From: Eledone cirrhosa
Lineage: Eukaryota
Length of the DNA stretch: 64,000 nt
Direction: 5' to 3'
Assembly (NCBI GenBank): GCA_964016885.1
Contig: OZ024752.1
Location: forward strand, 22,692,001-22,756,000
Shown: positions 1-64,000 of the stretch, piece by piece
How the letters are laid out: the number at the start of each line of letters is the position of its first letter
Position numbering within the stretch: the first letter of the stretch is position 1
The notes under the pieces: model-generated
What the model was told of the DNA's origin: nothing
Database searches by the model: none
The model's input: the letters and a program-made list of their open reading frames with translations, nothing else
Translations under genes and position numbers: made by a program

Positions 1-1592
1 TTTTATGCACCCATACTTTGCATTTAGGACATAAAATGGAGTTTCTACCTACGCCTTTCCTACACACCGAGCACGACCATTTCCCAGAAGGGACCGCCGC
101 CTTGTTTTCTTTCCTACAAACTAGAACTTTGGTCTTAGCCAGGTTAATTTTAAGTCCTTTTGACTCTAGGCCGTGCTTCCATATTTGGAATTTCTTCTCT
201 AGCTCGGCCATTGATTCCGCTATGAGTGTCAGGTCGTCTGCATATAGGAGTTCCCATGGGCAGCCTGTCTTGAACTCCTCTGTTATAGCCTGAAGGGCAA
301 TAATAAATAGTAGGGGGCTGAGAACAGAGCCCTGATGGACGCCAACTTTTACGCTAAACTCTTCACTATATTCGTTGTTAATTCTAACCTTGCTGACTGT
401 TTCTTTATACATGGCTTGTATAGCCCTCACAAGCCATTCGTCAACGCCTAGTTTTCTAAGAGCCCACCAGATAATGGAGCGGGGGACTCTGTCGAAGGCT
501 TTCTCCAGGTCGACAAAAGCTAAGTAGAGGGGTTTACCTTTAGCTAGGTACTTCTCCTGTAGTTGTCGTACTATGAAAAGAGCGTCTGTGGTGCTTTTGC
601 CTGACACAAACCCGAACTGCATTTCATCTAGGTCAATTCTCTCTCTGATTAGTTGCGCTATTACTTTTTCCGTGACCTTCATGACCTGGTCGATTAATTT
701 AATGCCTCTATAGTTACTCCTATCTAGGGCGTCTCCTTTACCCTTATAACAGTTAACGATGATGCTGCTATGCCAGTCCTTCGGAACAACCCCATTCTGT
801 ACGACTTGGTTAACTATGCGGGTGACCATGGTGTGTCCCACCGTGCCAGATGCCTTCAGCATCTCAGCAACTATTTCCGAAGGCCCAGCCGCCTTACCCG
901 TCTTCATATCCTTGATTGCCTTACTTATTATACTCCCCTCGACTAACACTGCTGGTCCCTCTATCGGGTCGATATGGGGGAGACTGTCTTTCTCCCATTT
1001 ATTCTCCTCATTTAGTAGCCTTTCATAGTGACACTTCCAAGCTACCTTCTTATCAGTGTCGGTGATGGCAAGTATGCCATCATCGTTAAGTACACACTTC
1101 TCCCCGACAATATCACGGTTTTCCTTGACGCATTGCCTGGCAATCCTGAACACCTCACGTTTTTGGTCATCGCGTTTTTGGTCATCGCGTTGTAGAACAT
1201 GCTTGAACTTTCTTTCCTCAGCTTCCCTTCTTGCTAAGTACACTTCTCTCCTAGCTTCCCTCCTGGCCACTTGATAGTCTACTCTACTTCCCCCATCCCG
1301 CCATACTTTCCAAGCCTGCTTTTTGGCCTTAATTGACCCCTCCACCCTACTGTTCCACCACCATGTTACTCTCCTCCTGCCTACAGGCCTGCTCCAGCCA
1401 CAGACTTCGTCTGTCGCCAACAGAAATTCCCACTGTCCCTCTATATTGTCCGATTCTAGATGCTCTTCCTTACTGTCGAAAGCATCAAGTAATATGCTTT
1501 GAAATTTATTTCTGGCTGTGGGGTCCTTTAGTTTCCATATTTTCCTCCTGAGGATAGTCCTCTTCTGCTGTCGAGTACATCTCGTCCTGACT
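1..1592 (-). mobile_element. RTE-clade LINE, copy A (5'-truncated; linker and RT; runs off the left edge)
   Basis: Bases 1-1073 are the near-exact reverse complement of 1611-2683 (RT motifs AFVDLEKAFD, GVHQGSVLSP, YADD). Bases 1074-1592 resemble the EN-RT linker at 30555-30960. The 5' end abuts a short TA tract. Confidence 0.93.
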
Positions 1593-1610
1593 ATACATAT
1601 ATACATATAT

Positions 1611-3812
1611 ACTTGCCATCACCGACACTGATAAGAAGGTAGCTTGGAAGTGTCACTATGAAAGGCTACTAAATGAGGAGAATAAATGGGAGAAAGACAG
1701 TCTCCCCCATATCGACCCAATAGAGGGACCAGCAGTGTTAGTCGAGGGGAGTATAATAAGTAAGGCAATCAAGGATATGAAGACGGGTAAGGCGGCTGGG
1801 CCTTCGGAAATAGTTGCTGAGATGCTGAAGGCATCTGGCACGGTGGGACACACCATGGTCACCCGCATAGTTAACCAAGTCGTACAGAATGGGGTTGTTC
1901 CGAAGGACTGGCATAGCAGCATCATCGTTAACTGTTATAAGGGTAAAGGAGATGCCCTAGATAGGAGTAACTATAGAGGCATTAAATTAATCGACCAGGT
2001 CATGAAGGTCACGGAAAAAGTAATAACGCAACTAATCAGAGAGAGAATTGACCTAGATGAAATGCAGTTCGGGTTTGTGTCAGGCAAAAGTACCACAGAC
2101 GCTCTTTTCATAGTACAACAACTACAGGAGAAGTACCTAGCTAAAGGTAAACCCCTCTACTTAGCTTTTGTCGACTTGGAGAAAGCCTTCGACAGAGTCC
2201 CCCGCTCCATTATCTGGTGGGCTCTTAGAAAACTAGGCGTTGACGAATGGCTTGTGAGGGCTATACAAGCCATGTATAAAGAAACAGTCAGCAAGGTCAG
2301 AATTAACAACGAATATAGTGAAGAGTTTAGCGTAAAAGTTGGCGTCCATCAGGGCTCTGTTCTCAGCCCCCTACTATTTATTATTGCCCTTCAGGCTATA
2401 ACAGAGGAGTTCAAGACAGGCTGCCCATGGGAACTCCTATACGCAGACGACCTGACACTCATAGCGGAATCAATGGGCGAGCTAGAGAAGAAATTCCAAA
2501 CATGGAAGCACGGCCTAGAGTCAAAAGGACTTAAAATTAACCTGGCTAAGACCAAAGTTCTAGTTTGTAGGAAAGAAAACAAGGCGGCGGTCCCTTCTGG
2601 GAAATGGTCGTGCTCGGTGTGTAGGAAAGGCGTAGGTAGAAACTCCGTTTTATGTCCTAAATGCAAAGTATGGGTGCATAAAAGATGTAGTGGGATCACA
2701 GGTAAGCTAACTAAGAACATAGATTTTACATGTGGCCGGTGTTCTGGTGCAATAAGTAGCAGCAAGTGCCCACAAAATACTAGCTCTTTCAATTGCGCAG
2801 AGGGTTCTATAGAAATAGTGGACAGCTTCCGTTACCTGGGCGATAAAATCAGCAGTGGGGGAGGGTGCTCTGAAAGTACTGTAGCTAGAGTCAGAACTGG
2901 TTGGAAAAAGTTCAGAGAGCTTATACCACTATTAGCTGCTAAAGGGTTCTCCCTAAAAATGAAAGGCAGGTTGTACGATGCCTGCATACGAACAGCAATG
3001 TTGCATGGCAGTGAGACCTGGGCATTGTGTGCAGAGGATATACGCAGACTAGAGAGGAACGAAGCTTGCATGCTCCGCTGGATGTGTAACAGTAATATAC
3101 GTGAACGGCAAAGCAGAAACGAACTAAGGAAAAAATTAGAGATAAGAGGGATCAGATGTTGTTTACTCGAGAGAAGGCTACATTGGTATGGACACGTGAT
3201 GCGCATGAAAGTCGATAGCTGTATAACAAAGTGCAGGGCAATAAAGATAGACGGTAGTCACGGAATAGGCAGACCGAGAAAAACCTGGGACGAGCTGATA
3301 AACTCCGACATCACACACTTACACCTCTCCAAGATAATGTCACTGGACCGAGACCTTTGGCGGTACTCAGTAACAGAGAAGACCCGCCTTACCTAAATAT
3401 ATATAGTAAAACCTACTCCAGCCAGTAGGCATCTCTAACAAAATACACCCCGTCCCACCACCACCACCCCTACTTCATCCACACCACCCCGTTCTATGTA
3501 AAGTTATGTTGGTGCCGCGCCATCCAGGCCGAAACAAATGAGATCGTGTAGGCCGAAACAAATGAGATCGTGTAGGTGTCACCACAAAAAAACACACAGT
3601 CCACGCTGTAATGTGGCCGTGTAGGCAACACGGTAAAAACCTCCCAGACCCACACTGTAAATGTGGTTGGTGTTAGGAAGGGCATCCAACTGTAGAAAAC
3701 CTGCCAGACAGTCCTATGCGAGCAAGACAATCACTCTTGCCTCAAGTGGGACTACCCCCGTCCAAACCCATGAAAGCGTGGAACACGGACGTTAAACGTT
3801 GATGATGATGAT
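1611..3812 (+). mobile_element. RTE-clade LINE, copy B (5'-truncated; RT, C-terminus, 3'UTR, (GAT)n tail)
   Basis: Starts after a TA tract and ends with a 3' stem-loop and (GAT)4 running into a TA array. RTE-type C-terminal motifs LHGSETW, RRLHWYGHVMR, GRPRKTW. Confidence 0.95.
1612..3396 (+). CDS. RTE ORF2 fragment: reverse transcriptase with internal PHD finger (uninterrupted frame, no endonuclease, no native start)
   Basis: Frame is open from 1612. Motifs GKAAGPSEI, YKGKGD, NYRGIKL, QFGF, DLEKAFD, QGSVLSP, YADD (2440-2451), FRYLG. Confidence 0.9.
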   Translation, partial: LAITDTDKKVAWKCHYERLLNEENKWEKDSLPHIDPIEGPAVLVEGSIISKAIKDMKTGKAAGPSEIVAEMLKASGTVGHTMVTRIVNQVVQNGVVPKDWHSSIIVNCYKGKGDALDRSNYRGIKLIDQVMKVTEKVITQLIRERIDLDEMQFGFVSGKSTTDALFIVQQLQEKYLAKGKPLYLAFVDLEKAFDRVPRSIIWWALRKLGVDEWLVRAIQAMYKETVSKVRINNEYSEEFSVKVGVHQGSVLSPLLFIIALQAITEEFKTGCPWELLYADDLTLIAESMGELEKKFQTWKHGLESKGLKINLAKTKVLVCRKENKAAVPSGKWSCSVCRKGVGRNSVLCPKCKVWVHKRCSGITGKLTKNIDFTCGRCSGAISSSKCPQNTSSFNCAEGSIEIVDSFRYLGDKISSGGGCSESTVARVRTGWKKFRELIPLLAAKGFSLKMKGRLYDACIRTAMLHGSETWALCAEDIRRLERNEACMLRWMCNSNIRERQSRNELRKKLEIRGIRCCLLERRLHWYGHVMRMKVDSCITKCRAIKIDGSHGIGRPRKTWDELINSDITHLHLSKIMSLDRDLWRYSVTEKTRLT

Positions 3813-6136
<2,324 letters not shown>

Positions 6137-8406
6137 ACAATGCAAACTGGGAAGCGATCAGTCATGATCTTGCACATGTCGACTGGTCCTTCACGCACAC
6201 TCATACACCCACTAACATCAAAAAGTCCTGGCAGACATTTGTGGACACTGTTACAAACATATGTGCTAAACACACCCCATTAAGAACTATAAACAAATCT
6301 AAGAGCAGAATCCCTAGAAATAGAAAAACACTCATCAGAAAAATTAAGAGAACGAACAAAAAAATCAACAAGCTGAAATACTGTCAGCAGCAACACATCA
6401 ACTTGACTGCCATTTCATCACTAGAGATTAAAAAACATAACCTCCAAAACAACATAATGTCCCTCATCAACAATCAGAGAAGAGCTGAAGAGGCCTGGGC
6501 CATTGAGAAGATCAAACTCAATCCCAAAGTGTTCTTTTCATTTGCAAAAAAACACAAAATCACTGGCTCTACTGTTGGCCCTCTAATTGATGAAAATGGC
6601 ACTCTTCAAGACAATGCTAAAACCATGGGTGAGATACTGCAGAAACAATACTGCTCTGTTTTCAGCAATCCTGATATGGCCGATCTGGGCTGTATCGGCG
6701 ATGTTACTCCCCATTACACCTTATCGGACATAACGTTTGGCGCCCCTGATGTCTTGGCGGCAATAAAGGAAATCAAGCATAATTCAGCAGTAGGTCCCGA
6801 TAGGTTCCCTGCTTGTGTCTTGAAGGCGTGTCAACACCAACTTGCTTCTCCTCTTGCCAATCTGTGGCGGAACTCACTGGATGCTGGATATGTGCCAGAA
6901 AACCTTCTATCCCAGTCTGTTGTCCCAGTTTTCAAAAAGGGAAACAAATCCCTTGCCGTGAATTACCGTCCAATCTCACTCACCTCTCATATCATTAAGG
7001 TATTTGAGCGAGTGGTGAGATCGCGAATGACCCACTTCCTTGAGAGTAACAATATGCTGAACTCCAACCAGCATGGATTCCGTAATGGAAGGGATTGCCT
7101 GACGCAACTACTGCATCACTTTGATGACATTTGAGAGCCTTGGGAGAGGGTTCCAACACTGATGTTATCTACCTTGATTTCAGCAAGGCCTTTGACAGGG
7201 TTGATCATAACATTCTACTGAGAAAGCTGTCCAATATTGGTGTCACTGGAAAGCTGCTGCAGTGGATCAAGAGCTTCCTGTCAAACAGAACCCAACATGT
7301 TGTAGTTGAGGGAGTCAAATCAAGCCCAGCCAAAGTCAGTAGTGGAGTCCCACAAGGCACTGTGTTGGCCCACTTCTCTTCATCATCTATATTAATGACA
7401 TCACTGACATCATCAAACACAGCAACATTAAAATTTTCGCTGATGATTCAAGCTCCAAAAGGTCATCAATGGCGTGGATGACCGGATAAGCCTTCAGTCA
7501 GACCTACTGGCTGTTACCCAATGGGCAGAAAAGAACAACATGCTACTGAACGAAGACAAATTCGAACTGATCCACTTTGGAAAAGAGGATGCTCTGAAAC
7601 TCCCGTACTCCCTTCCCTCCGGGGAAACTCTCGTGGCATCTAACAACATCAGAGACTTGGAGTAACCGTGGACAGCAACATAAGCTGGACCACGCATATA
7701 AGCAGCAAAGTTGACATGGCCCGCAGAATGTGTTCCTGGATCCTCAGAACCTTCCAGTCGAGAGATTCCCGCACCATTATCCTTCTCTTCTCTACTTTCG
7801 CCCGACCACACCTTGAATACTGTTGTCCACTGTGGTCTCCCACACGAAACAAAGTATCATGAAACTTGAAGCTCCTCAAAGGGCAATCACGAAAAAGATA
7901 GATGGCATGTCAGACCTTGACTACTGGGGTCGATTGGAAAACCTGAAACTTTACTCACTCCAACGTCGCCGTGAGCGTTATATTATCTGCATGATGTGGA
8001 AAATGTTCCATCATCACTGCCCAAATGATGTTGGCATCGCCTTCAAGATACACCCAAGGCTTGGGCCCCGTGCTATCCGTCCCATTCAAAATCTAAATCG
8101 CAACTCATAACAACAATACGGCACAATTATTTCACCTCAATCGGCCCTGCTCTCTTCAACATCACACCAGGACACGTCAAAACAGAAACTGACCACACAA
8201 AATTCAAGAAGTCTTTGGACAAATTCCTCCAAGTAATCCCGACAAACCACCCACACCCGGATATGTCTCCGCAAACAGTAATTCTCTTCTCGAATGGGCC
8301 ATGGTGCCCAAATCCTGAATTGAAAGACTTCGCCAGGTGGTGCTATTAAGTTAGACATGGCCTGGGCCAATACTGGCCAAAACATTTCAAAGTTCAAAGT
8401 TCAAAG
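6137..8406 (+). mobile_element. CR1-group LINE, 5'-truncated ORF2 (RT) with frameshifts and (TTCAAAG)3 tail
   Basis: [71 protein letters not shown]. Short tandem-repeat tail followed by TA. Confidence 0.92.
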
Positions 8407-11764
<3,358 letters not shown>

Positions 11765-11794
11765 CAAACAGCACGGACACTCTATCTCAAAATT

Positions 11795-11833
11795 ATTTTT
11801 GAAAAGCATTTAGAAATGCGCAACCGGTAAAAA
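11795..11833 (+). ncRNA. Variant minimal hammerhead ribozyme motif (UUGAAAA...GCAA)
   Basis: tttt TTGAAAA gcatt-taga-aatgc GCAA ccgg TA aaaa: stem II, palindromic stem III and U3:A8 covariation are present, with A13C. Confidence 0.5.
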
Positions 11834-11977
11834 CTTAAAAACTTTAAACCACAACTGAATACTAACCCATACAATCACTAATACTCTTTTATTCCTAATT
11901 AAACCATTTTTCAACTGTGAACAATTTGTCAGCATTTTCTATTCCGTTTACCAATATATATATATATATATACATAT

Positions 11978-12587
11978 ATGGTGGCTGCCAACTCGTTTTC
12001 GAGTACGGCCACTACTTTATATCCATGTAGGAGAACCCCTACCGATGCGCTGAACGAGTGTGACTTTTTAGTCCAGCCAGCGACTTGAAAACTCTAGTAC
12101 AAACACTACACTTGTGACAATTATTGACACATAGTGCTTTGTAGTTGGTACCATGTGACGACAAGTGCAGAGAGATCTCCAGATATAAAGCAATGCCTGT
12201 GCCGTGAAGCTTTTATAGTGAGCAAAGGCACTGCACAAAGCCAGTCCCACTGTCTTAACCAAGATGATATTTACCAAAAAGAAGAACAAGTCAACATCAT
12301 TGGATACCATCAGGGTTGCAGGTGTTATATCAGAGTTTTCCTTCTCCTAGAATTCTGCCTTGACAAAGGCTAAGGGGTCATCTCTCCCAGTGATTTTGGA
12401 TGGCCATTGACTCTTAAGAGCTCCTTTGCCCTTTGACAGGTTTTGTTTTTAGTCCTGCAGGATGTCCAAAGTCACCCTCCTCACCAAGAAACCTTGGTGG
12501 GATTGCCAGTTTAGTCGCCAACGACCCGACCATGAGACAGGTTGTACTGGGATACATGTTACCAGTAGCACCAAGTGGTGACCTGAC
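11978..12587 (-). mobile_element. Non-autonomous bipartite RTE-derived element, copy 1 (5'UTR-like part fused to ORF2 C-terminal C2H2 finger and 3'UTR)
   Basis: Direct repeat of 13438-14047. Minus 12131-12039 reads [26 protein letters not shown]. Contains the RTE 5'UTR-type motif CTAGGAGAAGGAAAACTCTGA. Confidence 0.75.
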
Positions 12588-13437
12588 ATATATATATATA
12601 CATATATATATACATACATATATATATACATACACATATACATATACATACATACATACATACATATACACACATACATACATATATACATACATACATA
12701 TATATATACATATATACCTACACACATACATACATACACACATACATACATACATACATATATATACATACATATACATATACATATATATATACACATA
12801 TACATACATAATACACATATATACATATATATATATACACATATATATACACAATACACATACATATATATACACAATACACATACATATATACACATAC
12901 ATACATAATACACATATATACATATATATATACATAATACATATATATATACACACATACATATATACACACATACATACACACATACATACATATATAT
13001 ATACATATACATATACATACATATATATATACATACATACACATATACACATATATACACACACATACACACATACACATACATATACATATATATATAC
13101 AAAAAAAATATATACATACATATACATATACATACATATACATATACATACATATACATACATACATACACATATATATACATACACACACACATACATA
13201 TACACATACATATACATACATACACATATACATACATATACATACATACATATATACATATATACATATACACAATACATACATATATACACAATACATA
13301 CATATATACACAATACATATATATATATATACACATATATATACATAATACACATATACATACATACATACACATACATATACATATATATACACATACA
13401 TACATACATACACATATACATATATATATATATATAC
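12588..13437. repeat. Degenerate (TA)/(CA)/(TACA) array
   Basis: Direct inspection. Confidence 0.97.
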
Positions 13438-14047
13438 ATGGTGGCTGCCAACTCGTTTTCGAGTACGGCCACTACTTTATATCCATGTAGGAGAACCCCT
13501 ACCAATGCGCTGAACGAGTGTTACTTTTTAGTCCAGCCAGCGACTTAAAAACTCTGGTACAAACACTACACTTGTGACATTTATTGACACATAGTGCTGG
13601 GCCCTTGGTACCATGTGACGACAAGTGCAGAGAGATCTCCAGATATAAAGCAATGCCTGTGCTGTGAAGCTTTTCTAGTGAGCAAAGGCACTGCACAAAG
13701 CCAGTCCCACTCTCTTAACCAAGATGATATTTACCAAAAAGAAGAACAATTCAACATCATTGGATACCATCAGGGTTGCAGGTGTTATATCAGAGTTTTC
13801 CTTCTCCTAGAATTCTGCCTTGACAAAGGCTAAGGGGTCATCTCTCCCAGTGATTTTGGATGGCTATTGACTCTTAAGAGCCCCTTTGCCTTTTGACAGG
13901 TTTTGTTTTTAGTCCTGCAGGATGTCCAAAGCCACCCTCCTCACCAAGAAACCTTAGTGGGGTTGCCAGTTTAGTCGCCAACGACCCGACCATGAGACAG
14001 GTTTTACTGGGATACATGTTACCAATAGCACCAACTGGTGACCTGAC
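13438..14047 (-). mobile_element. Non-autonomous bipartite RTE-derived element, copy 2
   Basis: Same two ends as copy 1 with scattered substitutions; TA on both sides. Confidence 0.75.
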
Positions 14048-16670
<2,623 letters not shown>

Positions 16671-16910
16671 TACAATATTAAATAAATGGAAAACTATATT
16701 ATAAAACCATATTTATTTCATTATATATATTTCGGGGATATCATATTAACAATATGCTATGCCTTCATCAGACAAAATACAATATAAACAGTTTATATTG
16801 TATTTTGTCTGATGAAGGCATAGCATATTGTTAATATGATATCCCCGAAATATATATAATGAAATAAATATGGTTTTATAAATATAGTTTTCCATTTATT
16901 TAATATTGTA
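16671..16910. repeat. Near-perfect palindrome of about 240 bp; PLE pseudo-LTR fold-back with a hammerhead in each arm
   Basis: Arms are reverse complements around tataaac-a-gtttata. Right arm: ttttgt CTGATGA aggcatagcatatt-gtt-aatatgatatcccc GAAA tatata TA atgaaa. Confidence 0.88.
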
Positions 16911-16997
16911 AATATACTCCAAATATTTGTCGAGTGCTTTTATATCAGTTATAAATATTTACTAGTTGTAACCCAACAATTTTAAATATAACTTTAC

Positions 16998-17092
<95 letters not shown>

Positions 17093-17099
17093 TATATAC

Positions 17100-17150
<51 letters not shown>

Positions 17151-17153
<3 letters not shown>

Positions 17154-19096
17154 GAAATAGTTGCTGAGATGCTGAAGGCATCTGGCACGGTGGGACACAC
17201 CATGGTCACCCGCATAGTTAACCAAGTCGTACAGAATGGGGTTGTTCCGAAGGACTGGCATAGCAGCATCATCGTTAACTGTTATAAGGGTAAAGGAGAC
17301 GCCCTAGATAGGAGTAACTATAGAGGCATTAAATTAATCGACCAGGTCATGAAGGTCACGGAAAAAGTAATAACGCAACTAATCAGAGAGAGAATTGACC
17401 TAGATGAAATGCAGTTCGGGTTTGTGTCAGGCAAAAGCACCACAGACGCTCTTTTCATAGTACGACAACTACAGGAGAAGTACCTAGCTAAAGGTAAACC
17501 CCTCTACTTAGCTTTTGTCGACCTGGAGAAAGCCTTCGACAGAGTCCCCCGCTCCATTATCTGGTGGGCTCTTAGAAAACTAGGCGTTGACGAATGGCTT
17601 GTGAGGGCTATACAAGCCATGTATAAAGAAACAGTCAGCAAGGTCAGAATTAACAACGAATATAGTGAAGAGTTTAGCGTAAAAGTTGGCGTCCATCAGG
17701 GCTCTGTTCTCAGCCCCCTACTATTTATTATTGCCCTTCAGGCTATAACAGAGGAGTTCAAGACAGGCTGCCCATGGGAACTCCTATACGCAGACGACCT
17801 GACACTCATAGCGGAATCAATGGCTGAGCTAGAGAAGAAATTCCAAACATGGAAGCACGGCCTAGAGTCAAAAGGACTTAAAATTAACCTGGCTAAGACC
17901 AACGTTCTAGTTTGTAGGAAAGAAAACAAGGCGGCGGTCCCTTCTGGGAAATGGTCGTGCTCGGTGTGTAGGAAAGGCGTAGGTAGAAACTCCATTTTAT
18001 GTCCTAAATGCAAAGTATGGGTGCATAAAAGATGTAGTGGGATCACAGGTAAGCTAACTAAGAACATAGATTTTACATGTGGCCGGTGTTCTGGTGCAAT
18101 AAGTAGCAGCAAGTGCCACAAAATACTAGCTCTTTCAATTGCGCAGAGGGTTCTATAGAAATAGTGGACAGCTTCCGTTACCTGGGCGATAAAATCAGCA
18201 GTGGGGGAGGGTGCTCTGAAAGTACTGTAGCTAGAGTCAGAACTGGTTGGAAAAAGTTCAGAGAGCTTATACCACTATTAGCTGCTAAAGGGTTCTCCCT
18301 AAAAATGAAAGGCAGGTTGTACGATGCCTGCATACGAACAGCAATGTTGCATGGTAGTGAGACCTGGGCATTGTGTGCAGAGGATATACGCAGACTAGAG
18401 AGGAACGAAGCTTGCATGCTCCGCTGGATGTGTAACAGTAATATACGTGAACGGCAAAGCATAAACGAACTAAGGAAAAAATTAGAGATAAGAGGGATCA
18501 GATGTTGTTTACTCGAGAGAAGGCTGCGTTGGTATGGACACGTGATGCGCATGAAAGTCGATAGCTGTATAACAAAGTGCAGGGCAATAAAGATAGACGG
18601 TAGCCACGGAATAGGCAGACCTAGAAAAACCTGGGACGAGCTGATAAACTCCGACCTCACACACTTACACCTCTCCAAGACAATGTCACTGGACCGAGAC
18701 CTTTGGCGGTACTCAGTAACAGAGAAGACCCGCCTTGCCAGTAGGCATCTCTAACAAAATACACCCCGTCCCGCCACCACCCCCACCCCATTCTATGTAA
18801 AGGTATGTTGGTGCCGCGCCATCCAGGCCGAAACAAATGAGATCGTGTAGGTGTCACGACAAAAAAACACACAGTCCACGCTGTAATGTGGCCGTGTAGG
18901 CAACACGGTAAAAACCTCCCAGACCCACACTGTAAATGTGGTTGGTGTTAGGAAGGGCATCCAACTGTAGAAAACCTGCCAGACAGTCCTATGCGAGCAA
19001 GACAATCACTCTTGCCTCAAGTGGGACTACCCCCGTCCAAACCCATGCAAGCATGGAACACGGACGTTAAACGTTGATGATGATGATGATGATGAT
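17151..19096 (+). mobile_element. RTE-clade LINE, copy C (5'-truncated; one 1-bp frameshift near 18115; (GAT)n tail)
   Basis: Near-identical to 1803-3812 and flanked by TA arrays. Lacks about 30 bp at the ORF end relative to copy B. Confidence 0.95.
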
Positions 19097-19695
<599 letters not shown>

Positions 19696-19771
19696 AACAG
19701 AAATAACAACACGATCGGTACAGTATATGGAAACGATATATTAGGTTAACGCTTGATATAGCAGGAAGAGG

Positions 19772-19808
19772 GTCTTAACGTTTCGGACGCTAGTTCTTCA
19801 TCGGAGGA
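19772..19808 (-). ncRNA. Degenerate minimal hammerhead motif (CCGAUGA core)
   Basis: Minus strand: cct CCGATGA agaac-tagc-gtcc GAAA cgt TA aga. Confidence 0.45.
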
Positions 19809-20308
19809 AAGAATGAGAAATAAGATAGACTGAGGGGACGGGCGCGATGAAATTGGAAAAAATGTCTTTAGATAAAATTAACAGGTCCATTCATGTTGAC
19901 ATCTCTTGCAAAACTGTTCGTGCTGGCGTTTTGTGTATGATCTATTATTAGAAAAGCGGATGATGGAGCGCATCTACCTTAAATAAAAAAAAAAACGTTT
20001 TGTAAAAAGAGCTATATTTGAGCACATAAATAAGTGTGTGTGTTATCTTCATGCTAAAATACTCACTGTATTAGCCCCATAACTGCATTTATGTGACTTA
20101 CACACATTGAGTCTGAGACGCATGGCAATTCTGATGTGTGTACACTCAATGTTGATAAGGGTTCTGGTTGATGAAGGTAGTGCGTTGACCCATGTGTCAT
20201 CCTGAAGCAGGTAAAACAATTGTTGGTCAAGGGGTGTAAATGATAATTACCCAAGATGTTACACAGTGGGAGCAAACCTTGGAAATAATTTATTACCAAG
20301 CAAACCCC

Positions 20309-29572: not shown

Positions 29573-30965
29573 TCTGTTGGACCCTTCCTAAAAACTAACC
29601 TGCTCCTAAAGTTATCCATTTCCTGCCCTCCCACCCCCAAACACCACCATTGGTATATGGACCAATCATAACTCACCGGCTTTAGTAAGTTCCCTAACAA
29701 ATCAGTATAGCAAAACTACCGCCCCGGTTACTACTCCTTAAGTTTAGACCTGTTTGATGGGTTGACTGCGGAAATTTAGAAAGTCTAAGCACTCAATGAC
29801 AACGTCACAGATAAAGATAAATTCACCTCCCGCTGCAGGACGAGAATACAAGAACCCCTCTCTATTTCAGACACAAATGACCAACATAATTCCGTCTCCC
29901 AGACCCCTCCCAGCCCCTCCAATCCATCCATCCCACCCTCCCAACTTCAGAGTTGATACCATGAACGTAGGCACATTGAAAGGTCGCTCAAATGAGGTTG
30001 TAGAGATGCTTGAACGTAAAGAAGTTGATGTTTGTTGTATTCAAGAGACAAGGTGGAGAGGGGGGTCTGCCAGATTCATCGTGAGTAAAAAACAATGCTA
30101 TAAACTTTTCTGGGTGGGAAATGACAACGGACAGCGTGGTGTAGGAATTATGTTAGCAGAAAAATGGGTACATAAGGTAATTGACGTAAATAGAGTAAAT
30201 GACAGAATAATTAAAATAAGGCTAGTACTAAATAGAACCGGCAGCGACTACATAATTATTGCTGGCGATCTAAATGGCCACGTTGGACAACATAGTGATG
30301 GCTATGATGGAATCCATGGAGGCTATGGGGTTGGAAATAGAAATGAGGAAGGCTTCAGAATCCTGGAATTCTGTGACGGTAATAACCTAACTATCTGTAA
30401 CACAAACTTCAAAAAACGTGAAAACCACTTGATCACCTATAGATCAGGGGAACATGCCAGCCATGTAGAAGAAGGGACAAAGTGTCTGTTGTAAACACTA
30501 AATCCCTCCCTCATGAAGAATGCACCTCCCAACATAGCCTAGTAGTTAGTGACCTCATAGTCAGGAATAGATGTACTCGACGACAGAGGAGGCCTACCTT
30601 GAGGAGAAGAATATGGAAGTTGAAGGACCCCATAGCCAGTGACAAATTTAAAAGCTTATTACTTGATGCCTTTGAAAATAAGGAAGAGCAATTAGAGACA
30701 TGCGATATAGAGGAACAGTGGCAATTCTTGAAAGTGAACCTGCTGAAAGCAAAGAATGAAATCTGTGGCTAGAGCAGACCTGTTGGCAGGAGGAGAGTAA
30801 CTTGGTGGTCGAACAGTAAGATAGAAGAGACAATCAAGGCCAAAAAGCAAGCTTGGAAAGAGGAAGTAGAGAGCACTATCAAGTGGCCAGGAGAGAAGCT
30901 AGGAGACAAGTGTACCTTGCAAAAGGGGAAGCAGAGGAAAGAAAGTTAGAGCATGTTCTACACAG
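29573..30965 (+). pseudogene. RTE LINE 5' part: apurinic-like endonuclease and linker, with internal deletions
   Basis: MNVGTLKGRS, VDVCCIQETRW, GVGI, AGDLNGHVG, NTNFKK, ITYRSG; linker homologous to copy A 1200-1590. Confidence 0.88.
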
Positions 30966-33423: not shown

Positions 33424-34249
33424 ATTGGCCACAAAAGGTTTCTATCTAAAAATGAAAAGCAGATTGTATGATGCTTGTATACGAACAGCAATGTTACATG
33501 GCAGTGAGACATGTGCATTGTGTGTAGAGGATCTGCGCAGACTGGAAAGGAACGAAGCTTGCATGCTCTGTTGGATGTGTAATAGTAATATAAACAAACG
33601 GCAAAATATAAATGAACTAAGTGAGAAATTAGGAATAAGAGGCATCAGATGTTGTCTACTTGAGAGAAGACTACGTTGATATGGTCACGTGATACGCATG
33701 AAAGACGACAGCTGTTTAAAAAAGTGCAGGGCGATCAAAATTGATGGTAGTTACGGAGTAGGTAGACCCAGAAAAACCTGGGACAATTTGATAAATTCTG
33801 ACCTTACACACTTGCACCTCTCTAAGACAATGTCACTGGACTGAGATCTTTGGCACCATGCAGTAATACAGAAGACCCACCTTGTCTATGTACAAAGAGA
33901 AACCTACAGTCAGTAGGCACCTCTTAACCAAATATACACCCCAACCCTCTACCCCTACTCCATCCTCCGACTCCCACCAACACTACCCTTTTTCTGTAAA
34001 GTTATGTTGGTACAACAACATCCAGTCCAAACTAATGAGAACGTGTAGGTGTCACAACAAAAAACACACAGTCCATGCTGTAATGTAGCTGTGTAGGTAA
34101 CATGGTAAAAACCTCCCAGTCCACACTGTAAATGTGGTTGGTGTTAGGAAGGGCATCGAGCCGTAATGAGCGAGACATGGTCACCCGACCAATTCCCGTC
34201 TAACCCATGCTAGCATGGAAGATAGGCGTTAAACGATGATAATGATGAT
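33424..34249 (+). mobile_element. Older RTE copy, 3' part (ORF2 C-terminus with stops, 3'UTR, GAT tail)
   Basis: KSRLYDACIRTAMLHGSET; homologous to 2935-3812. Confidence 0.9.
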
Positions 34250-34257
34250 ATGCATAT

Positions 34258-34289
<32 letters not shown>

Positions 34290-37465: not shown

Positions 37466-38998
37466 AATATCTTTTATGGTCCTGCTTTCTTTCTTTGCCC
37501 TGGGAAAGTTTGAGTGCAATTTCGATGTCAAGTAGTGCATGTTTCAAATAGGATTCCTTCTTGTCTTTGTTTTTTTTGTTGTGTTCAAGAGGTTTGAGAG
37601 CTTAATTCCTAATCTTGTGGGGTTGTTGGGTGTCCGCCGTGATCCATCGCGGGGTTGTGCACAGCTCAGGTCGAGCTCGGTTGGGGCTATAAACCTGCGC
37701 GGTGCGGCCTCCCTGCTCAATGAGGGTTCGGCGGGTGGTGGGGCCGGTGCCTAAGCTCCACACCGCAGTGGTCTTCATCGTTAGACTGGTGGGGTATGCG
37801 GGACCTTCTACCGGGGGTGGTGACAGATAGGGGTCTGGGAGTGTTACTACTGGTCACCGAGGTATTAGGTGGGTGACTCATGCTCCTGAGGGTATTGGCT
37901 CGGGGCTCCCTTGGGTCATCTCGGTCATGTCCCTTAGGGTTATAGCTGATCCTATGGCTGTGGGACGCCTTGGCTAGCGCTGAGTTATAGTAATCAGCGT
38001 TACTATTGAAGATCTCTTTATTGGCAGACAAGTTAGAGATCCTGTCAGAGACACTCTTAACTACGGCCTTAACTATAGATCTAGGGTGATTGGACCCAGC
38101 CTCTCATTGGGTTTATGATATGGGTGGTGTAGCTTGGTGTTGAGGTTGAGGGTGGTGTCCAGGAAATTCACTACTTTTCTATTGGGTTCCATCTCTACTT
38201 TAAGTCCTACCTTGCTAAAGAAGCGTCTAATTCTCCTCTTCATATTTTCGACCATTGTGGTGCTGTTGTCCATGACAATGAAGAGTGCATCGTCTCGGTA
38301 CAGTCCGCCACCCAGGTTGGGTATTTCGCTCCTGATCTCGTAGAGTATGTATATCCCAACCAAGTCCGTTAGGTGTGCGGAGTCACTGGAGCCCATTGTA
38401 ATATCAAAATTATTTGGCCAGTCACTCCGGGTCCATATGTCCCCACCGAATTGGATCAGGGTATTTCTGGCGGCGTGTATGATTCGGACCTCGTCGCCCG
38501 TTAGGTCTGTCCTATTCATCGCGAATGTGAGTGCCTTGTTCAGGACTATGGGCGAGATAGAGTAGTAATTGTTGATGTCTAGTTGTATGAAGCTAGTCCT
38601 ATGTTTGTCAGGTAAAAATGTAAACCAGCCCAGCACCTTATTTTACTCTTAAGTGTGGGCAGGATCCTATCTAAAATGCTTTTGCTGATAACTCCCATGT
38701 CTGACCAGGAGGGGGTTATCAGTCTGACCGGCAGGTTAGACTCAAAGTTTGGTTTGCTGTCCTTAATGGTAATCCTCGGCTCCCTTGGTTGGTATGGGGC
38801 CGTCCTATCATCAATGCCAAGACCAGATACGATCTCAAAAGCCTTGATGTTGATATCCTCCAGGGTAGCCTCGGGCGTTTTTTTGTAGCTTTTTCTCAAT
38901 TCCCTGAGGATTAGCTCATGGTAAAGTTGAACGTCCATGCTGTAAAGGGGGTTGGTTTTGTCGGCATGGACGAGTATTCCTATAGATTCCTTAAGCTC
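37466..38998 (-). pseudogene. Penelope-like (Naiad-type) reverse transcriptase fragment with a long Pro/Arg/Ser-rich linker
   Basis: ADKT, YKK, ITIKDSKPNF, VRLITP, GVISKSILD, FIQLDINNYY, FDITMGS, GLYRDDAL, NFLDTTLNL, YNSAL; frameshifted. Confidence 0.85.
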
Positions 38999-39000
38999 GG

Positions 39001-39280
39001 TATGTTGTGGTACCAACATAACTTTACAGATAAAGGGGTGGTGTAGATGGGGGTGGGGGTAGGGGTAGTGGGATTGGGGGTGTATTTTTGGTTAGGAGGT
39101 GCCTACTGACCGTGGGTTTCGCTTTGTACTTAGGCAAGGCGGGTCTTCTGTATTACTGCGTAGCATCAAAGATCCAGCTCCTGGTTGTGTTGTTATTTCC
39201 TTGAGGAATACAGAAGACCCGCTTTGCCTAAGTACAAAGTGAAACCCACAGTCAGTAGGCACCTCTTAACCAAAAATACA
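39001..39280. mobile_element. RTE ORF-end/3'UTR fragment (minus) with a 74-bp fold-back copy (plus)
   Basis: 39001-39173 is the reverse-complement homolog of about 33845-34020; 39207-39280 is an inverted copy of 39081-39154. Confidence 0.8.
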
Positions 39281-47494: not shown

Positions 47495-50386
47495 TCAATG
47501 AGACCCTTGTGCTTGTTTTTGATCCACAAGTTTAGAAATCCTTGGCTCTATGTGGCTCAAGCGAAGTCTCAAATCGGCATTGTTGTCGAGGATCAAACGC
47601 CTCCGCTGCTTTGTGTATGTGTGGAGGACAATGGAAAATCCCTTTTCAGCCAAGTAAGATGTAGGGAGATTTATTATGAAAGGCTCAACTTGTTCAAACA
47701 GCTTTGGCTCTTCTTGACAATGATTCAACCAAGCCTCGATCCAGTTAGGTTAAAAAAATTTACGCAGATTATCATCTACTGTTGCCTCACAGAGCTCCAT
47801 CTGAAGACATTCTGGTTGAACAAGTATGTCGTTCATAGACATTGTGTGAAGAGAATCCACAAAAATTGGGATATTTAAAGCCAAAATATCTTCAAAATGA
47901 TTATTGAAGTTTTCGTGAAGGAAAGATATATTTCTATTTATTGCCACAAGGGCGCAAAAGAAGGGGACAAATACAAGGGAGGGGGGAGTTTACACAAAAG
48001 AACAAGTAAAAAAAACAAATAACAAATATAAAATTAATAATAAAGTCCTCAATAGGGAGGAGGTGTTTTGGGGGGTCGCGCACACCCCCGAAAAAAGTGT
48101 GCAACCTTTCTCCTGAGGAGCACAGAGAGAGAGGGTGCTCCCTCGTTCCTTCATCTTTTCCATCTACAGGCTGATATAGAGAGAAGGCCCATTCACACGA
48201 GCCATTCTCGCCACTTTCACCCACCTTTCATAAAAACGACTGGGGTGGAACACCTCTCTCCCCATCCTGATCCTTCCGAAATGATATCGGAAGAAACGGA
48301 CCAGTTGTTGGCCAGAGAGAAAGGTGCCTGACCTCAGTCCTTTCAGATGCGTCCACCATACAACCTCTTTCACCATGGCTATTACGCACAGAAATACCGC
48401 CCCTCCTTCATTTTTGAAGGGGGGAGGCGGCTTAATCGTTACAATGGCTTCGGTGGTCAAACAGATCGATCCCACCCGTGACAGCAGTCATTCGACATAG
48501 CCCCACAGATCGGCCACGCCCGAGCAGTGTACCAATGCGTGTGCAACGGTTTCCTCGTTGCATCTGGGACAGATCTTTTTGGCGGGGTCCCTACCCGGGC
48601 GCCCGTGTCTGTAAAGCTTTTCTCGAACGGGTAGAGCCCCTCGGTAGCACTGCCAGGCTAGGGACTTCTGGAAGTTGTCCATAGGTCCCGGGCTGAATGT
48701 CCTACCGAACAGGCCGGCCAGTTCATCTTCCTCCATGTCTAGGGCTTCTCCGAGGGCGTCGTTGCACCTGCTGCATACCAGCCCGCTATAGAATGTCGAG
48801 GTGGAGTCTCCACTGATAACCGGGTCCGCTTGCCAGATGGCCGTGAGCGCCTGGGCACACTCAGTGTGCCAGGCGCCCAGTTTTCTCGGTCTTTGCAGCT
48901 CGGTGAGTGAGACGAGTCTGGGAAAGGTTCGTCTCACAAACGGGGCCCACACCGGTTGACCGGTGAAGAATACGTGGATGTGCCGTAGCCTTAATGCGTG
49001 GAAAGATAGATGCTCGATTATAGATTTGTGCAAGTCATTATCTACCACAATAGTTTTTAAGCTCTCGAACTGCGAAAAGTTATGATCTTCAATTTGAATT
49101 TTCCATAGAACGAGCTTATTCATGAAAGCCCTTATCAAGTGTTTGGCACGTACAACGTTGATGTTCTGCTTTTGCAAAGAAAGGTTGAGATCATTTAGTT
49201 TTTGAAAGATCTCATGTAAGTACAAAATTGTGGGTTTTTTCTCAGAAAGTAATGCTGTCGTAATTGGATCAGTCTGTTTGAAAAAATTCTATGACTTTAT
49301 CAAAGAGTGCAACAAAACGTCCAAGGCAGCTTCCCATTGATAGCCAGTGTATATCTGTCGAATACAACAGACGTTTGAACGTTTCATCTTTACAAGCTTC
49401 TTGGAAAAGCCTGTCCCGAAGACCAGATCTTTTGATCTTGTTGACTGCGGAAACAATTGTGTTAAGGATTTCAGAAAAGGTATAACTTCCGATTTTTTTT
49501 GCAATTAAATTTTCTCGATGGAGTACGCAATGAGTTGTGAAGATGTGATTAAATTCTCTCCATCTTGCAACAAAACCCTGGGATTTTCCAGCCTCTATGG
49601 TTGGAAAATCCCAGGATTTTGCACTGATGGAGTGCATATTGATATGATGTTGTGGGGATCAATGTTATTTTTAGTGAGAAAATCCATGACTGCATTGTAG
49701 ATTATCTCTCCAGTGTTTTTTAGTACAGTTGTCATAAAAAGTAGGTTTTCACAAACCGTGGTCCCTTTTACATAGCGAGCAAAAGCAAGCACAACACATT
49801 GGTTGTCAAAAGTGCTGTCATCCACCGTCAACGAAAATCTGCAGTGTCGCAATTCTTCTACAACTGTAGATTTGACATCTTTAACCATTTCAGAAATGCG
49901 GGAAGATACCGTGTTGTTGGAAAGTGGAATAGTTGCTAAAACTGAGGCAGCGTTCGACACATTAGCAACTTTATATCCTTCAAGTATTGAGGGCCTAATC
50001 AGGTCTTCACCAATGGTATGTGGGCGACCCTGTTTTGCTATCATGAGCGAAATGTTGTAGGATGCTTGCAGACCAGAACTGTTGTTAGCATGGGATAGGA
50101 AAATTTTCAGTGATGCAGATGACGCTTTTTTTTTTGCGAAGATATTCTTCGAAGTACTTCTTAGGCTTGCCATATAAATCGGGATGGACTTGGTTTTGAT
50201 GATACAATAATTTCGAAGGTTTCATTGAGTCGTTAGTTAACATATTTTTGAGCAGATGATACACTGTGGTGATGAAGGATCTTCTGCGCTGGATAAAAAA
50301 CCATATCTGATATAATCTGAGTTATATGGTCTACAAAATCGTTTTTCCGATTCGGTGAACGAAGAATTTAGAGAACGTTTTTCCAT
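47495..50386 (-). pseudogene. Buster/Charlie-type hAT transposase, frameshifted and interrupted by a LINE
   Basis: N-terminal YIRYGF..PQCIIC (BED finger), PHTIGEDLI, PLSNNTVSSRI, FSLTVDDST, HCVLHRE, IHWLSMG, PTSYLAEKGFS, QAQGSH*. Confidence 0.92.
47929..48999 (-). mobile_element. 5'-truncated L1/Tx1-group LINE (C-terminal CCHC region) inserted in the transposase
   Basis: 9-bp TSD GGAAAGATA at 47920-47928 and 49000-49008; LAWQCYRGALPV...CPRCNEETVAHALVHC; AATAAA at the 3' end. Confidence 0.85.
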
Positions 50387-63077: not shown

Positions 63078-64000
63078 TCATTCCAAAGCCTCTGGATAAA
63101 CAATATTGTTGGTTTTGCCCTGTGGTGCCACAATGAAGAGACAATCAGGGTTCCCAACCCTTGTACCAACATAGAGTTGACCATGCGAAAAGACAGGATC
63201 TACCAGATTCAAACCAACGACTTTCAATGATTGCCCTTGAGATTTATTAATGGTCATGGCAAAACTGAGCCTGATCGGAAATTGAAGTCTTTGAAATTCA
63301 AATGGCAAATCAGTTGGCTTCAGAGGTATTCTGGGAATGAAACAATTGTGATCAGCAAATTTTCCTGACATGATTGCAACATCTAGAACATTGAACATCA
63401 TATTTTTGATGTTGAGTCTGGTGCCATTACAAAGTTTTGGAGGATCCAGATTACGAATTAGCATAACCAATGCTCCAAGCTTCAGTATCAGGTTGTGTGG
63501 AGGAATTCCCGCTTGTTCAAGACTGTTCAAAAATTCAGTTGGATAGTTTACAACCTGGTCTTGAGAAGTGATTGTGTCAACTGATTTGTAGCATATTTTC
63601 TCTCCCAGTAACATCTCCAGCAGCCTTCTGTTGATTTCTTTCACAGCAACATTTTTAGGTGCTAATATTGCTTGTCACAGAGCCATTTCGGATCACATTG
63701 CCTGGTCTGAATGATTGGAAACATTCTGGCAATCAGTTCTTTTTCTGTGTCAATGATATTGCCAAATGACAACTGAATATGGTCATTGGAGTCCTTTTCA
63801 AGAAGTCCATTTCCCAATTTAAGTAGTTGGATGGCAAACTCACTGACACTTTCGTCACCAGTTAAGTGCACTCGCATGTTGGTTGTAAGGCTCAGCAGCT
63901 GAAAGTGGGTCAGACATAGGATGTTTTCAGACCTGATCAGCTCGAGTCCCTCGAAGAATTATAGACAGAGTTTGTCTGAAATCACCAGCAAGAACCATTG
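63078..64000 (-). pseudogene. Helitron RepHel PIF1-like helicase C-terminus (frameshift and small deletions)
   Basis: GDFRQTL, TTNMRV, YPTEFLNSL, LIRNL, LCNGTRL, IPRI, RLQFPIRLSFAMTINKSQGQSL, FSHGQLYV. Confidence 0.92.

Follow-up and report, generated by a model that had tools for sequence, protein, structure and literature searches.

A basic, Pygopus-like PHD finger within the reverse transcriptase of an RTE retrotransposon lineage represented in Eledone cirrhosa

Among APE-type LINEs, PHD fingers are known from CR1/L2 elements, where ORF1 or the ORF2 N-terminus carries them, upstream of the endonuclease, and where the top structural matches include the Pygo structures 2vpb and 3zpv. A targeting role was proposed for them, with no functional study as of 2014, in an account that also regards LINE ORF2 as structurally constrained (Metcalfe and Casane 2014, PMC4120745). 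RTE-clade LINEs such as RTE-2_OV encode APE endonuclease and reverse transcriptase (RT) domains in a single ORF of roughly 1.1 kaa, end in short repeats, show 5' truncation and reach high copy numbers (PMC9115989); the sites at which RTE elements insert reportedly correspond to the microsatellite at their 3' end (PMC6007223). In R2Bm, an RLE element, a loop of a few residues between RT motifs 6 and 7 (loop 6a, residues 672-677, structure 8gh6) recognises an upstream target DNA motif in a sequence-specific manner and is required for nicking; its authors call it unique to R2 (PMC10499050).

The window analysed here, a stretch of 64,000 nucleotides of contig OZ024752.1 from Eledone cirrhosa, contains three copies (A, B and C) of an element that has something in common with each of these systems (Table 1). 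It shares the RTE characters listed above with RTE-2_OV, which we compared by description only (1109 aa, with a finger given as 'C2H2' and a 3' UTR made up mostly of microsatellite, PMC9115989), and differs from it by a 65-residue PHD insert at motifs 6-7 and by having no C-terminal zinc finger; the 'C2H2' of RTE-2_OV, known here by that description, may be the same finger. As in CR1/L2 elements, a PHD is found in an APE-type LINE, but it is located in the RT palm and in another clade. As in R2Bm, there is an insertion with basic residues between motifs 6 and 7, but here a complete zinc finger occupies the place, and the element that bears it is of the APE type and has no set target.

Table 1. 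Coordinates of the features discussed, in positions of the window
Feature	Position	Strand	Basis or remark
Copy A, 5'-truncated	1..1592	-	97.9% identical to full-ORF copy L033, 96.1% to copy B
Copy B, 5'-truncated RTE LINE	1609..3812	+	95.6% identical to full-ORF copy L033
RT catalytic YADD (motif 5), copy B	2440..2451	+	Sequence; RVT_1 E 3.7e-32
RT motif 6, copy B	2533-2562	+	Sequence, in frame with finger
Insert N-terminal linker, copy B	2563..2604	+	Place equivalent to R2Bm loop 6a (residues 672-677) by alignment
C4HC3 PHD finger, Pygopus-like and basic, copy B	2605..2742	+	Pfam PF00628, Pygo1 profile match, AF2
Insert C-terminal linker, variable, predicted disordered, copy B	2743..2808	+	16% mean identity; pLDDT <50 at residues 383-389
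RT motif 7 (IEIVDSFRYLG), RT resuming beyond insert, copy B	2809..2841	+	Sequence; aligned to FxYLG of PHD-less relatives
CR1/L2-like LINE	6138-8407	+	Full-length copies L208, L212, L217; short-repeat tail
608-bp element, no long ORF	11980-12587 and 13440-14047		Two copies, 96% identical
AT-rich palindrome	16665-16916		Perfect 91-nt arms, 1-nt spacer, plus 36-nt outer arms
Copy C, 5'-truncated	17151..19096	+	98.4% identical to L033
Older broken relatives of the RTE family	29766-30962 and 33434-34272		76-81% identical to L033
Penelope-like RT piece	38073-39091	-	Presumed transposon remnant, judged from translation
hAT-like transposase pieces	48488-50221	-	Presumed transposon remnant, judged from translation
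PIF1/Helitron-like helicase piece	63078-63674	-	Presumed transposon remnant, judged from translation

The full-length element has a single 1084-aa ORF, with an N-terminal APE endonuclease followed by the RT, and no ORF1. This ORF aligns to the L1 EN and RT, and its homologs bear PF03372 and PF00078. Long copies have a 3' UTR of roughly 370 bases, and all those fetched (19/19) terminate in (GAT)n. A search for a C-terminal CCHC/C2H2 motif found none in 29 ORFs (0/29). The anatomy is that of an RTE element: a single ORF, APE plus RT, and a short-repeat 3' tail. The 5' region of long copies is microsatellite-rich; in L032, L034, L036-L039 and L043 it contains a (CA)n(TA)n microsatellite of its own as well as duplicated segments, so that the true 5' end is not fixed. 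At the other extremity, a GACG-x-AAAC(G) motif stands just before the tail in the distant PHD-RTE families represented by L051, L053, L054, L056, L057, L061, L064 and L070, and at 3787-3812 in the window. It is possible that this motif of PHD-RTE 3' ends is a conserved RT-recognition signal. In several of these families, the ORF stop lies inside the tail itself.

In copy B, the frame is open to a stop at 3396, and is followed by the 3' UTR and a (GAT)n tail that merges into (TA)n. Only 16 bases of TA/CA repeat separate copies A and B. Because the two are head to head across this repeat and 96% identical, they are likely to be two independent 5'-truncated insertions into one microsatellite.

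A complete PHD finger inside the RT of copy B had been proposed from the letters of the window, and this was confirmed. The segment has the pattern W-S-C-x2-C-x10-C-x2-C-x4-H-x2-C-x14-C-x2-C, and YADD, motif 6, finger and motif 7 form one reading frame. The Pfam PHD model (PF00628, curated cut-off 24 bits) scored 27.5 bits on the whole ORF and 32.9 bits on the segment alone. It matched 21/21 aligned family members at E<=0.01, far beyond chance, and all eight zinc ligands, whose conservation across related families was in question, are invariant in the family alignment. Identity as a C1 or RING domain was rejected, both models remaining under their own cut-offs and under the PHD score. The AF2 prediction for the finger gave strands at residues 24-26 and 33-35 and a short helix, with a core pLDDT of 75-87.

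The finger had been placed at the palm-thumb junction of the RT. It does lie inside the RT, 55 residues C-terminal to YADD and N-terminal to the FRYLG of motif 7, but this position is in the palm, between motifs 6 and 7 and before the primer grip, and not exactly at the junction. The distance from YADD to FxYLG is 63-72 residues in PHD-less relatives, versus 125-134 in most PHD-bearing ones, hence an insert of approximately 65 residues. The finger is also intact in copy C, at 17952-18089, one base to the left of where the sequence-only reading had it, and is followed by a 1-bp frameshift near 18117. In copy A, where it had been glimpsed at the edge, its first part occupies minus-strand positions 79 to 1 and the remainder is provided by the genome left of the window; there, it is intact within a 780-aa open frame.

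Searching the genome of the animal with the insert and its flanks returned 61,065 first-look candidates, which are matches and not copy numbers; the 150 that were scored were 98-100% identical to the query. These genome-wide candidates, together with the homologs described below, rule out that the insert is a peculiarity of one young family or an assembly artefact.

Any implication that the insert is special to a young family found no support. A finger was present in 28/28 long homologs, at 42-55% identity, in a set biased toward the insert, as the insert region was the query. A less biased metagenome scan, seeded on RT-core words, gave 79 loci, 54 of them truncated or broken between YADD and FxYLG. 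Among the 25 that were open over this interval, the finger was complete in 22, decayed in 2 and absent from 1 (24/25 with the insert). When the RT before the insert was used as query, the best 150 cluster representatives comprised 17 with a PHD, 82 without (mostly one near-identical family), 32 unclear cases and 19 without YADD. In the ESM Atlas, RVT_1 + PHD clusters represented 19/30 named matches, and the few taxa recorded for them were Nematomorpha, Mollusca and Cnidaria.

In a tree built on the RT and thumb columns, those of the insert being excluded, 22 PHD-bearing RTs and 13 PHD-less ones were separated by a branch with support 100/98 (three rows, P0197, P0202 and P0297, left out; no outgroup). 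In trees on the RT core only, one of them rooted with outgroups that placed the root among the PHD-less rows, 4 PHD-less rows at the base could not be separated from the PHD group (2 changes in one tree, support 48 in the other). The group was apart from the CR1-like outgroup; the rows of these trees are proteins without element names, and the PHD-less sister rows are assigned to RTE provisionally, from their motifs. A single early gain of the insert in the lineage appears to be the simplest reading, and is well supported by the trees. The insert is a trait of a whole RTE sub-lineage.

Mean identity across 29 proteins was 55% for the PHD, 64% for the RT core and 53% for motif 7 plus thumb, while the linkers reached only 22% (N-terminal) and 16% (C-terminal). 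Over this alignment, the finger equals the thumb in conservation, which its linkers do not. The sequence-only reading had suggested a substitution analysis, and its outcome agreed: when L033 was compared with the diverged copy that L209 contains, the PHD had a pN of 0.116 for a pS of 0.615, with a pN of 0.29-0.32 in the linkers and 0.083 in the thumb. In this analysis, the PHD was covered by 13/31 loci only, and few variants were shared within the finger (3 synonymous, 1 non-synonymous). From the cross-family identity and the low pN relative to pS, the finger is therefore needed by active elements.

Which kind of PHD is it? A profile of 21 fingers searched against the PDB matched Pygo PHDs best (Pygo1, E 2.8e-08), then mostly H3K4me3 readers, and PF27108 PHD_Pygo was found in 12-29% of the members of look-alike ESM Atlas clusters. 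Likeness to the Pygopus PHD (2vpe, 2dx8) extends to a YPC-type start and to the hydrophobic residues of the K4me and T3 pockets. In Pygo1, the K4me2 cavity is formed by W366, Y341, D352, V350 and A356, an E360 mutant loses H3K4me3 binding, which makes E360 essential, and the R2 side chain stays in solvent (PMC2726290). Among 43 RTE fingers, the equivalents of these pocket residues were W in 43, V in 42, S or A in 42, I or V in 43, and Y, F or W in 38. The Trp and the aromatic residue before Cys1, which had been put forward as methyl-lysine cage positions, indeed correspond to Pygo W366 and Y341. The same proposal had remarked on a Ser in place of the usual Met: the Ser is there, but is no defect, because Pygo, the closest solved relative, has Ala at this position. 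The acidic residues behave otherwise. The equivalent of E360 (C3+1) is Glu in 1/43 fingers, and the C2-C3 loop, in the D352 region, is two residues shorter and acid-free in 40/43. Judged from these alignments, the hydrophobic methyl-lysine pocket is kept and both key acidic residues are lost. Loop 2 is also shorter than in Pygopus, and the elements that bind BCL9 there are absent from it. Pygo matches of both CR1/L2 ORF1 PHDs and RTE PHDs hint at a domain exchange between LINE clades.

The net charge of the finger is positive in 49/49 cases, from +3 to +12 with a mean of +6.9 (20 of these 49 were picked by ligand pattern), as compared to about -6 for the Pygo1 PHD by hand count from the alignment. 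Relative to windows of equal length in their own ORFs, which average +2.0, the fingers rank on average at the 85th percentile, the weakest case being at the 52nd only. Typical H3-reading PHDs have acidic faces (PMC3241642, PMC10124903). Loss of the D352 and E360 equivalents combined with the strong basic charge therefore makes a case against a classical H3-tail reader. A basic PHD finger is known in the VIN3/VEL PHD superdomain of a host Polycomb accessory protein; it bound no H3 peptide, bound DNA and RNA weakly, and had no aromatic cage, whereas the RTE finger keeps one (PMC9640981). Readers of unmethylated H3K4, of the BHC80/AIRE type, have an acidic cluster N-terminal to Cys1 and lack an aromatic cage (PMC3241642). 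This identity was rejected for the RTE finger, in which the decapeptide preceding Cys1 carries a net negative charge in 4/43 cases only, and in which an aromatic cage is present.

An AF2 model of RT and thumb (pLDDT 85.5, with 79-87 over the finger and a disordered linker beyond it) superposed on R2 and L1 structures of target-primed reverse transcription with Z of 19-24. The last residue of motif 6 (codon 2560) aligned with R2Bm residue 666, at E 0.22 for the short query and 1.1e-10 for the full protein. The PHD insert thus appears, by an alignment that is weak, to begin at the place equivalent to loop 6a, and we infer that the finger faces target DNA.

The explanation that we favour, tentatively and at somewhat less than an even chance, is that the basic finger serves to hold target DNA or chromatin close to the nick while target-primed reverse transcription proceeds. 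The PHD would stem from an RT loop matching the R2Bm loop that touches target DNA upstream of the nick. Projecting from there, the finger would keep the substrate in place for an enzyme of the APE type, one devoid of a C-terminal zinc knuckle. Its surface Trp and Tyr would make stacking contacts with nucleic acid or accommodate a methyl-lysine as an additional contact. Tethered in this way, a basic finger would make target-primed reverse transcription more efficient but impose no particular sequence; site choice would come from the endonuclease, from pairing between target and (GAT)n tail, AT repeats being possible partners, and from the genomic abundance of TA repeats. Consistent with such a grip are the uniformly basic charge, the loop 6a position, the loss of the Pygo acids, the VIN3 precedent, the missing C-terminal zinc motif, and a finger that is conserved far better than its linkers. 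Speaking against it, the hydrophobic residues of the K4me and T3 pockets are almost invariably kept, as would be expected of a methyl-lysine reader; many LINE domains are basic, and in the weakest case the finger hardly exceeds the middle of its own ORF; and the equivalence with loop 6a comes from a weak sequence alignment.

The well-kept cage leaves room for another explanation, which we consider rather unlikely as it stands: a Pygopus-type H3K4me reader would tether the RT to marked nucleosomes and bias insertion toward such chromatin. The RAG2 PHD, which tethers V(D)J recombination to chromatin, provides a model for it. The best PDB matches being all Pygo PHDs, the PHD_Pygo annotation of the look-alike clusters and the conserved equivalents of four of the five cavity residues (Y341, V350, A356, W366) point in this direction, and an acidic R2 pocket is not required, as Pygo leaves this side chain in solvent. 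However, the D352 wall and the E360 equivalent are missing, a net charge of about +7 contrasts with the acidic faces of canonical H3 binders, and no acidic cluster precedes Cys1 as in readers of unmethylated K4. Moreover, sampled copies stand mostly in TA microsatellites (49/69), a location that does not suggest promoter chromatin. Grip and H3K4me reading could be combined. The finger would then be a bivalent nucleosome sensor, with its basic residues on linker DNA and its Trp/Tyr cage on methylated H3K4, an arrangement to which we give a little less credit still.

Binding to the element's own RNA or to the RNA:cDNA hybrid, or packing on another part of ORF2p or on a host protein, in a role in RNP assembly or structure that would make up for the lack of an ORF1 or a C-terminal knuckle, seems improbable to us. 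The single ORF without ORF1 or C-terminal zinc knuckle (0/29) would leave such a role vacant, the basic surface exposes aromatic residues, and a GACG-x-AAACG motif with a short-repeat 3' tail is common to many relatives. But PHD-less RTE relatives also appear to do without such modules and are abundant all the same, and the variable linkers suggest a domain that is tethered rather than packed.

The relation of the family to TA repeats was analysed on 69 distinct 3' flanks. By the rule used, 49 were of the TA type and 20 were not, versus 1272 of 5000 random positions (25%) in a window that is unusually TA-rich. The TA preference of the family is real; it falls short of the strict insertion into one repeat that characterises a microsatellite-specific LINE. 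In the same genome, 14/15 copies of the CR1/L2-like LINE end in TA. The PHD profile found nothing in that element itself, at 14 loci that included full-length copies. Conversely, PHD-bearing relatives from other hosts had a TA flank in 1/15 cases, these being single flanks of collapsed contigs. That the PHD steers new copies into (TA)n repeats, as the sequence-only reading had suggested, can therefore be given hardly any credence despite the excess of TA-type flanks: a LINE without the finger ends in TA in the same genome, relatives with it do so in a single case elsewhere, published work on RTE elements links their choice of site to the microsatellite in which they end (PMC6007223), and we regard the claim as largely refuted.

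Several other occupants of the window were seen in passing. The ORF1 of the CR1/L2-like LINE has a poly-Gln tract and no PHD, and this LINE is a candidate TA-preferring family. The 608-bp element, which had about 3000 first-look candidates in the genome, has both ends in TA/ATAC repeats (31/38 ends, some counted twice), and no similarity to the RTE family was found; lacking an assigned mobilising element, it was left out as a TA control. The palindrome stands between a TA array and copy C, and is either a MITE-like element or an assembly fold-back. An Rfam scan of positions 1-20000 found nothing.

Within the open literature, which was the scope of our search, no description of a PHD inside an RTE RT was found, and the main text of two mollusc transposable element papers did not contain the term 'PHD'. 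The RVT_1 + PHD pairing already exists in automatic annotation, where PF00628 is recorded on 13/28 homologs. Repbase may note PHD domains in some invertebrate RTE entries. PHDs in LINEs were already known from CR1/L2; the present one lies inside the RT palm of an RTE lineage.

A deep and successful RTE lineage with a PHD at motifs 6-7 represents a second, independent use of the loop employed by R2. As the system is abundant, recently active and made of a single ORF, the role of a LINE PHD finger can be tested directly in it. The motif 6-7 site tolerates a 65-residue domain in RTE-type RTs, enzymes already used for gene writing (PMC13708176). Should the finger prove to be a bivalent sensor, a chromatin reader would be built into the polymerase palm of a pan-invertebrate RTE lineage, and the motif 6-7 loop would offer retrotransposon gene writers a natural site into which targeting modules can be fitted time and again.
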